From a virus (Duplodnaviria; Heunggongvirae; Uroviricota; Caudoviricetes): a stretch of DNA of 64,000 nt. The first letter of the stretch is position 1. Every line of letters starts with the position of its first letter. The stretch lies in IMG/VR virus record IMGVR_UViG_2721755651_000007; one strand, written 5' to 3'. Below are positions 13,153 to 14,930 of this stretch, one piece after another. Position numbers and translations under genes: made by a program. Under the pieces are notes generated by a model, which was not told the DNA's origin, ran no database searches, and saw only the letters and a list, made by a program, of their open reading frames with translations.

Positions 13153-14397
13153 ATGAGCACTGATAAAGAAGAATTTGCGCTATATTGCGAAGCAAAAAAT
13201 GACAAAGTCAGAAAACGTCTGGGAATTAAAGGTGGTTTTTACTGGACTACAGCAAAAAAATTATCTGTTGCCATCTCCCGCTGCATTACCGCAATGGATG
13301 ACAACGATTATGATGAAGACGACTTTAAAAAACCCGTTCGCGTCCATTTACCCGTTGTGAATGACCTTCCACCTGAAGGCGTGTTTGATACCGAATTCTG
13401 CAACCGATACGAAAAAGGCGGGGAAGATGGCATTACAATGGTATTTATCGCGCCCTCTCCCTCCGTGCAGGAGAAACCAGCCAGTACTGACAATACCAAC
13501 GTCAACGGCGAAGACATGACGGAGATTGAGGAGAATATGCTCCTGCCGGTTTCTGGTCAGGAGCTGCCCATTCGCTGGCTTGCGCAACACGGCAGCGAAA
13601 AACCAGTAACGCACGTTGCACGGGAAGAACTTCAGGCATTACATATAGCACGGGCGGAAGAACTGCCGGCTGTTACTGCCCTGGCCATTTCTCACAAAAC
13701 AAAGCTGCTCGACCCGCTGGAGATTCGCGACCTTCACAAACTGGTACGCGACACTGACAAAGTTTTCCCTAATCCCGGTAATTCAGACCTGGGACTGATA
13801 ACTGCTTTTTTCGAGGCATACCTGGACGCTGACTACACTGATCGGGGTCTGCTGACAAAAGAGTGGATGAAAGGAAATCGTGTTTCGCGTATCACCCGTA
13901 CGGCTTCCGGTGCAAATGCCGGTGGCGGGAACAAAACCGATCGCAATCCGAATTTAGTACACACCTTCGATACGCTGGATGTGGAGATTGCAGCAGCCAC
14001 ACTTCCGATGGATTTTAATATTTATGAAATTCCGGGCAGCGTTTATCGTCGCGCAAAAGAAATCGTCCTGAAAAGAGAAAGTCCGTTCAAAGAATGGTCC
14101 GCAGCACTTCGCGCAACCCCGGGTATTCTGGACTATTCCCGCGCCGCTATTTTTGCACTTATCCGGAGCGCTCACCCTGAGTTTTATCACTACCCGGGAC
14201 GCCTTCAGGGGTATATCAACGCCTACTTAACGGAGACTGATCACGAGAACCCCAGCAAGGAAACTCTCACTGCTGCACGACATACACCGGAAAAAGATAT
14301 CCTGGAAGAAGTTAACCGCGAACTGTCTGCTAAGCAGGAAACAGAAGAAGAAAATGATGAAGAAAAACCGCAACCATCTTGCGCAATGGCAGAATGA
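13153..14397 (+). pseudogene. large early-operon gene at the exo/recE position, apparently truncated at a deletion junction
   Basis: 414 aa ORF ends inside overlap with integrase fragment frame; no C-terminal nuclease domain. Confidence 0.4.
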
Positions 14398-14930
14398 TAA
14401 TCAGAAGAAATCTGGCAAAAGACCGTTTTACAGTACCAAAAACACAGGCGGGAACCAATCGTGTGATTCACCTTATTAAGCCCGCAATCGACGCTCTCCG
14501 GAGTCAGATGGCACTAACGAGACTGAGCAAAGAGCATATCATCGATGTTCACCTCAGAGAATTCGGCAGAACAGAGAAACAAAAATGTACCTTTGTTTTT
14601 CAACCTGAAGTGTCAGCGAAAGTAAAAAATTATGGCGACCATTTTACCGTTGACTCAATAAGGCAGATGTGGGACGCAGCGGTAAAGCGTGCCGGAATCC
14701 GCCATCGCAAATCGTATCAGTCGAGACACACTTATGCCTGCTGGTCGTTAACAGCAGGAGCTAACCCGGCATTCATTGCAAACCAGATGGGCCATGCAGA
14801 TGCGCAAATGGTGTTTCAGGTGTACGGGAAATGGATGTCAGAAAATAATAATGCGCAGGTAACGCTGTTAAATACACAGTTAAGCGAGTTTGCCCCAACC
14901 ATGCCCCATAACGAAGCGATGAAAAGTTAA
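14379..14930 (+). pseudogene. tyrosine integrase, C-terminal catalytic half only
   Basis: ...RHTYACWSL...GHADAQMVFQVYGKWM; N-terminal ~200 aa absent. Confidence 0.7.

Follow-up and report, generated by a model that had tools for sequence, protein, structure and literature searches.

The window analysed here, a stretch of 64,000 nucleotides, carries two prophages in tandem, A and B. Within prophage A, an open reading frame at 13153..14397 on the plus strand, which encodes 414 amino acids and is closed by a TGA at 14395-14397, overlaps by 19 nt with a TTG-started frame of 183 amino acids at 14379..14930. A preliminary description had the first frame end within the first codons of the second, exactly as we found it. 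Upstream of the first frame, an exonuclease remnant (see below), lie a repressor/cro pair, O/P-type replication genes, the DicF RNA, dicB and a DUF1482 gene; this gene set is a Qin-like early left operon. The DicF small RNA (12461-12512; Rfam RF00039, 75 bits) is located upstream of dicB, as in the prophage Qin of E. coli K-12.

The DNA of the window is that of E. coli O157:H7, the region being 100% identical to many O157:H7 chromosomes. Judged by its sequence, prophage A is prophage Sp11 of strain Sakai, a lambdoid prophage and relative of K-12 Qin at the same ydfJ/rspB attachment site. Positions 13000-15200 are 99.96% identical to Sakai Sp11, and positions 1-5557 and 6867-20796 match Sakai 2190434-2211230 at 99.96-100%, differences in IS629 aside; to this near-identical sequence come the same neighbouring genes. 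In the Sakai genome (NC_002695.2) the matching region is the right end of the annotated 'prophage Sp11, lambda-like phage', and the junction of the two frames has the same position relative to dicB and dinI as in the window. Sakai Sp11 (ECs_2216, ECs_2217; Asadulghani et al. 2009, PLoS Pathog 5:e1000408) is the same element with the same junction and shows no essential difference from the window. An IS629 is found just after dinI in Sakai, whereas the window lacks it there and carries at 5558-6866 a 1.3-kb insertion with an IS629/IS1203-type ORF, which is absent from this place in Sakai and TW14359. At 10179-10817 we observed an uninterrupted ORF of 212 amino acids with HTH and S24 peptidase domains, which looks like a whole CI/LexA-type repressor; the RefSeq annotation at this place covers only its last 112 amino acids, and the Sp11 repressor was called disrupted by Asadulghani et al. 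(PMC2669165).

Pfam, comparison with full-length relatives, the Sakai annotation (ECs_2216) and PGAP agree on the first frame, 13153..14397, as a truncated exonuclease pseudogene. The preliminary description had already taken this early gene for truncated, and rightly so: its product agrees at 413 of 415 positions with residues 1-415 of an 820-amino-acid exonuclease, 414 codons being kept out of the 820 of the gene. One of the two differences is a Glu missing in a run of GAA codons, the other one is the final residue. The run (14337-14354) has one GAA codon fewer than in strains 493/89, LSU61 and 00_3305, which is a small slippage difference. The N-terminal region is recognizable as PF06630 (Exonuc_VIII) at residues 57-189 (E=1.6e-34, Pfam). 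In the 820-amino-acid relative, PF16473 (Rv2179c-like 3'-5' exonuclease) occupies residues 639-810; since the window frame ends at 414, this domain is lost, and the C-terminal nuclease domain of an 'ExoVIII-type' exonuclease is missing from it. PGAP marks the remnant 'missing C-terminus'. Its CDS comprises only the first 802 nt (13153-13954), labelled 'RecE family', with 13955-14378 outside of it. This pipeline label reflects only the shared N-terminal region, as the full-length ancestor has a DEDD-type Rv2179c-like 3'-5' exonuclease domain and not the RecE nuclease domain.

The second frame encodes, as had been noticed before, the C-terminal piece of an integrase, with the exception of codons 1-5 (TTG CGC AAT GGC AGA). 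The TTG start at 14379 is spurious because the TTG and the four codons following it are exonuclease DNA read in another frame. Integrase-derived sequence begins at the in-frame ATG 14394, corresponding to Met254 of a 431-amino-acid protein, where the Sakai annotation of ECs_2217 starts, too. The remnant proper (14394..14930, plus strand) comprises residues 254-431 (Met254-Ser431) and is identical at 178 of 178 positions to the same residues of the integrase of O145:H28 RM13514, indicating a remnant by descent. In the NCBI annotation of TW14359 and strain 319 it is given as 'missing N-terminus', and the exonuclease is incomplete there as well.

According to Pfam, the catalytic domain of the full-length integrase extends over residues 206-397. 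The match of the remnant to PF00589 (Phage_integrase, E=5e-9) is partial, running from profile position 52 or 53 to 165 out of 172, and the domain has lost its first 48 residues. Thereby the catalytic set R-K-H-R-H/W-Y is incomplete: K269, R364 (Arg-II), H387 and the nucleophile Y397, assigned by alignment to Tn1549 Int (PDB 6EMY), are retained, whereas Arg-I (R235 in YTGIRPGEL), 19 residues upstream of the breakpoint, is deleted. The arm-type DNA-binding domain (Arm-DNA-bind_2 at residues 9-71 of the full-length relative) is absent from a remnant starting at 254. The same applies for the core-binding domain, placed at residues 85-190 of the full-length protein by SAM-like Pfam matches that are weak and below Pfam's curated cut-off. 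The 5' part of the integrase is thus missing, as stated in the preliminary description, but the wording 'catalytic C-terminal half' claimed too much for a piece that makes up 41% of the protein and lacks Arg-I.

The undeleted allele was found by searching each flank separately and then the missing segment. In O157:H- 493/89 and O157:H7 LSU61, dicB is followed by the 820-amino-acid exonuclease, an 83-amino-acid excisionase (Pfam DUF1233) and the 431-amino-acid integrase, all of them intact and in the same Sp11 context. The LexA-family repressor, dicB and DUF1482 proteins of both strains are identical to those of the window, in 493/89 also the cro, YdaT, O and P proteins, and the downstream neighbours are dinI, an IS256-family element and nleG7 as in the window. 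Intact Qin-type modules of 493/89, LSU61, O26:H11 11368 and O145:H28 RM13514 show at least 99% DNA identity on both flanks and carry the 2,321 bp missing in the window, with an exonuclease of 820-823, an excisionase of 83 and an integrase of 431 amino acids; the LSU61 integrase has the same protein accession as that of RM13514. The excisionase gene sits between the other two, which bears out the earlier statement that xis is absent from prophage A. At 15400-19058 of the window we observed the IS256-family element split by ISEc8 (IS66-family, 16221-18662). As this element is intact in 493/89 and LSU61, the ISEc8 insertion is, like the deletion, absent from these strains.

It might be argued that both frames are complete genes in mere overlap, the second encoding a complete small tyrosine recombinase. 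Both have possible start codons, and the second lies above the Pfam threshold for Phage_integrase. We nevertheless consider this practically out of the question: the Pfam match covers only part of the profile (52-165 of 172), the second frame matches residues 254-431 of a 431-residue protein at 100% and the first corresponds to residues 1-415 of an 820-residue one, and in the same context an undeleted allele is known. Hence, neither is 14379..14930 a complete small recombinase nor is 13153..14397 full length. A chance overlap of ORFs was likewise rejected in favour of a true deletion junction, as the flanks match 493/89 with 2,321 bp missing between them.

Three-way alignments and exact-match extension against three sequences (L012, L013 and L014, the last from 493/89) place the deletion junction at 14393..14394, inside the interval 14370-14410 proposed before. 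Window 8199-14397 is 99.89% identical to positions 1-6201 of L014, window 14385-16220 is 99.84% identical to positions 8511-10346, and exactly 2,321 bp of L014 (6199-8519) are absent from the window. Exonuclease-derived DNA reaches through 14393 (L014 6198) and integrase-derived DNA starts from 14393 (L014 8519), so that the A at 14393, assignable to either side, is the only base common to both parents. The junction accordingly reads GGCAG[A] up to 14393 and ATGATAATC from 14394 on, joining exonuclease nucleotide 1244 (codon 415) to integrase nucleotide 759/760 (codon 253/254). Comparison with LSU61, 146N4 and 00_3305 gave the same 2,321-bp breakpoint result. Strain 00_3305, the integrase of which is IS-interrupted, provided the first clean three-way alignment and was superseded by 493/89 and LSU61. 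O145:H28 RM13514 was rejected as parent: its integrase is 99.5% identical, but it has a different exonuclease allele at the left breakpoint, and the probe was not found there.

The deleted length, 2,321 bp, cannot be divided by three, and past the junction the exonuclease frame reads GAA (Glu for the parental Asp) and then TGA, i.e. it stops one codon later. The deletion has thereby made an ATGA overlap at 14394..14397 (plus strand), in which ATG is Met254 of the integrase and TGA the new stop of the exonuclease frame. The preliminary description had the deletion fusing the two genes. This is true of the DNA; an in-frame exonuclease-integrase fusion protein was rejected because the frames differ and the stop lies one codon past the join.

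We interpret the junction as the scar of a single, spontaneous deletion of 2,321 bp in the leftward early operon of O157:H7 Sp11, and give this reading a probability of roughly 0.93. The deletion joined the exonuclease to the integrase at the nucleotides given above and removed the C-terminal 3'-5' exonuclease domain, the whole excisionase gene and integrase residues 1-253, which carry the arm-binding domain, the core-binding domain and the catalytic Arg-I.

The breakpoint itself gives some indication of how the deletion might have formed. When the two parental breakpoints of L004, L012, L013 and L014 were compared in register, a 13-nt imperfect direct repeat became apparent, of which the exonuclease-side copy GCGCAATGGCAGA is retained at 14381..14393 (plus strand). 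The integrase-side copy of the undeleted allele is GAAAAATGGAACA; 9 of 13 bases match in register, including AATGG. The binomial chance of at least nine matches in 13 is about 1e-3, for a repeat that was noticed after the fact. The junction lies at the 3' edge of the repeat, and right of the join the parental sequences share nothing. In the base-level comparison with the parental alleles no foreign bases, IS ends or target duplications were found at the junction. Because of the one-base overlap at the edge of an imperfect repeat, without an insertion sequence, homology-independent illegitimate recombination or replication slippage is the most likely mechanism, even though with a perfect overlap of 1 nt the mode of formation cannot be proven from sequence. 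With the same overlap of just 1 nt, an unequal homologous crossover between the tandem prophages was rejected. An insertion sequence, by an IS-adjacent deletion, might have made the junction in this IS-rich region, where IS629, ISEc8 and the IS256-family element are nearby, and K-12 Qin, in which an IS2 remnant separates what is left of the two genes, provides an example of this mode at the locus. In the window, exonuclease sequence passes base for base into integrase sequence with none of the traces of an IS, and we regard such an origin as very unlikely. IS-mediated events and homologous crossover are both much less likely than illegitimate recombination or slippage.

The cryptic prophage Qin of K-12 (dicB-ydfD-ydfE'-IS2'-intQ') resembles Sp11 in its ydfJ/rspB site, its gene order, the truncated gene pair and the loss of xis. 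The 3' half of its integrase has 91.8% DNA identity to the window, and its integrase remnant 95% protein identity to the full-length integrase. In Qin, however, the breaks fall in codon 256 of the exonuclease and codon 45 of the integrase, the IS2 remnant lies in between, and integrase residues 45-431 are kept. IntQ' retains the whole catalytic domain, which the O157 remnant does not. With differing breakpoints and mechanism, the deletions in K-12 Qin and O157 Sp11 are independent events.

Neither of the two remnants can be a working enzyme, because the exonuclease stops just past the join and the integrase piece, whose active site is incomplete, cannot bind att DNA. One might alternatively suppose that the ATGA overlap allows coupled translation of the 178-amino-acid integrase piece, or that the N-terminal exonuclease fragment is made, or both, and that the remnants were kept as a functional unit interfering with integrases of incoming Qin-type phages. 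In favour of this, the in-frame ATG 14394 shares a base with the new stop codon, and K-12 Qin has independently kept an N-terminal exonuclease piece (256 codons) together with an integrase 3' piece. This is countered by the absence of a recognizable ribosome-binding site before 14394 and by the loss of all DNA-binding domains and of Arg-I from the fragment. Random decay would also leave promoter-proximal pieces, and perfect conservation in 225 genomes (see below) says little in a young clone. We therefore think a retained function very unlikely. The same low expectation holds for a more specific form of the idea, in which restart at Met254 would yield a 178-amino-acid fragment acting in trans, e.g. 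by poisoning the integrase tetramers of Qin-type phages that come in or are co-resident; co-resident intact integrases of this type occur in some O157 genomes such as 146N4. If this were true, the scar would not be mere decay but a small module directed against mobility or against phages.

As for mobility, the attachment sites have to be considered besides the enzymes. The att core GAAATCCATAA (11 nt) lies at 14968..14978 on the plus strand, at the boundary of Sp11 and prophage B. Homology to genomes with an int-rspB arrangement (O145, K-12) ends after GAAATCCATAA, and the Sakai annotation sets the Sp11/Sp12 border at 14968-14978. The left end of Sp11 lies outside the window and its att core is known from Sakai, where the same 11 nt are found next to ydfJ', followed by a 99.75% identical P' arm with dinI. 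A longer core of 20 nt, ATGACTCTTGAAATCCATAA, was rejected as it was not found at the Sp11 left end, the common core being only the 11-nt GAAATCCATAA. Because two prophages stand in tandem, 14968-14978 is an attP-like P-O-P' junction. Correspondingly, the arm right of the core (window 14979-15365) is a 99.75% duplicate of the Sakai Sp11 left end; a DinI-like gene (PGAP CDS at 15108-15350) lies inside this duplicated arm.

Since the att core is present at the integrase end of Sp11 in the window and at the left end of Sakai Sp11, the block to excision would be the loss of Int and Xis and not the loss of att. Asadulghani et al. (PMC2669165) listed Int of Sakai Sp11 as 'D' (disrupted), the excision function as '-' (absent) and general recombination (ExoVIII-type) as 'D', and predicted Sp3, Sp11 and Sp12 to be unable to excise; excision, replication and packaging of Sp11 were all undetected in Sakai (Table 2 therein). 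The claim of the preliminary description that prophage A cannot excise by itself is in agreement with these data, which refer to Sakai Sp11 and not to the strain of the window. Sp11 thus appears to be locked ('grounded') in the chromosome, which the published Sakai experiments support. It fits the general class of 'grounded' prophages, immobilised by mutations in integrase, excisionase or att sites. Ramisetty & Sudhakari (2019, Front Genet 10:65, PMC6379469) named the inactivation of intQ as a likely cause of Qin's grounding; their paper provides the conceptual framework and not a description of the Sp11 junction.

Of 5,426 complete E. coli genomes, 225 contained a full-length match of 100% to a 101-nt probe spanning the junction (window 14345-14445), and an assembly artefact was rejected on account of this identical junction in 225 genomes. 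All serotype-labelled matches among the sampled full-length ones were O157 or O157:H7. Elsewhere the probe matched on the integrase side only (from the AATGG repeat on, with two mismatches) or on the exonuclease side only. The undeleted segment is present at 99% identity or more in 86 genomes, O26:H11 included. As 493/89 and LSU61, which we take to be early-branching O157 lineages, are still intact, the distribution suggests that the deletion probably arose within the O157 lineage after these two had split off. Such dating assumes vertical descent of Sp11 and not a replacement of the region by prophage recombination.

One genome may carry the intact and the deleted state side by side, as O157:H7 146N4 (L012, L015) shows. 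In this strain the Sp11 scar carries an IS1203 in the integrase remnant and is followed, after a rearrangement, by abgT'-ogt-fnr. A second prophage of 146N4 with a different immunity region has an intact exo-xis-int module of the same type, located before dinI-IS256::ISEc8-nleG7. It is conceivable that a scarred Sp11 receives help in trans in strains like 146N4.

Prophage B had been suggested as the reference for mapping the breakpoint. Between its exonuclease and the remnant, the alignment is limited to residues 270-414 (33% identity), and the integrase of B has no significant match to the remnant because it is lambda-type and belongs to a different family. Given this weak exonuclease alignment and the absence of an integrase alignment, prophage B cannot map the breakpoint. 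Its int gene (62870-64000) encodes a complete lambda-type protein of 376 amino acids with Arm-DNA-bind_1. Compared with Sp12 of Sakai and TW14359, prophage B (20797-64000) has a mosaic structure: identity to TW14359 is 99.3-99.7% over 20797-29268 and 34624-44757 and 97.6% over 44901-46759, while the sequence from about 46.8 kb on is at most 90% identical or unmatched. Strain 319 is 100% identical over 54000-64000, the integrase adjoining ompW there, whereas Sp12 of Sakai and TW14359 ends in a truncated Qin-type integrase beside ynfA. The pattern fits a crossover near 45-50 kb, either by prophage-prophage recombination or in a large inversion. Outside the window, Sakai Sp12 (L008 7332-8026) has a deletion of its own of ~2.96 kb, running from integrase codon ~227 into rspA and removing the att site and rspB. 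Due to this Sp12 deletion, the integrase pieces in Sakai are complementary and non-overlapping (1-227 in Sp12, 254-431 in Sp11).

The defect caused by the deletion in Sp11 was already annotated and experimentally characterised in Sakai. Our analysis adds the exact breakpoint, the size of the deletion, the loss of Arg-I, the microhomology at the junction and the ancestral allele; in the texts consulted on Sp11 we did not find the base-resolution breakpoint, the 2,321-bp size or the ancestral allele of 493/89 and LSU61. The case also illustrates that annotation pipelines name a remnant 'RecE family' although the ancestral gene had a different, DEDD-type nuclease domain. Typing by PCR or in silico could make use of the base-exact junction as a simple lineage marker. 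Because the intact allele survives in 493/89 and LSU61, these strains may be used as natural controls for Sp11 excision. Sp11 carries the type III effector genes nleG2-3, nleG6-2 and nleG5-2 and the regulator gene pchB, and by the deletion, as known already from Sakai, this cargo would be fixed in the chromosome and no longer mobile.
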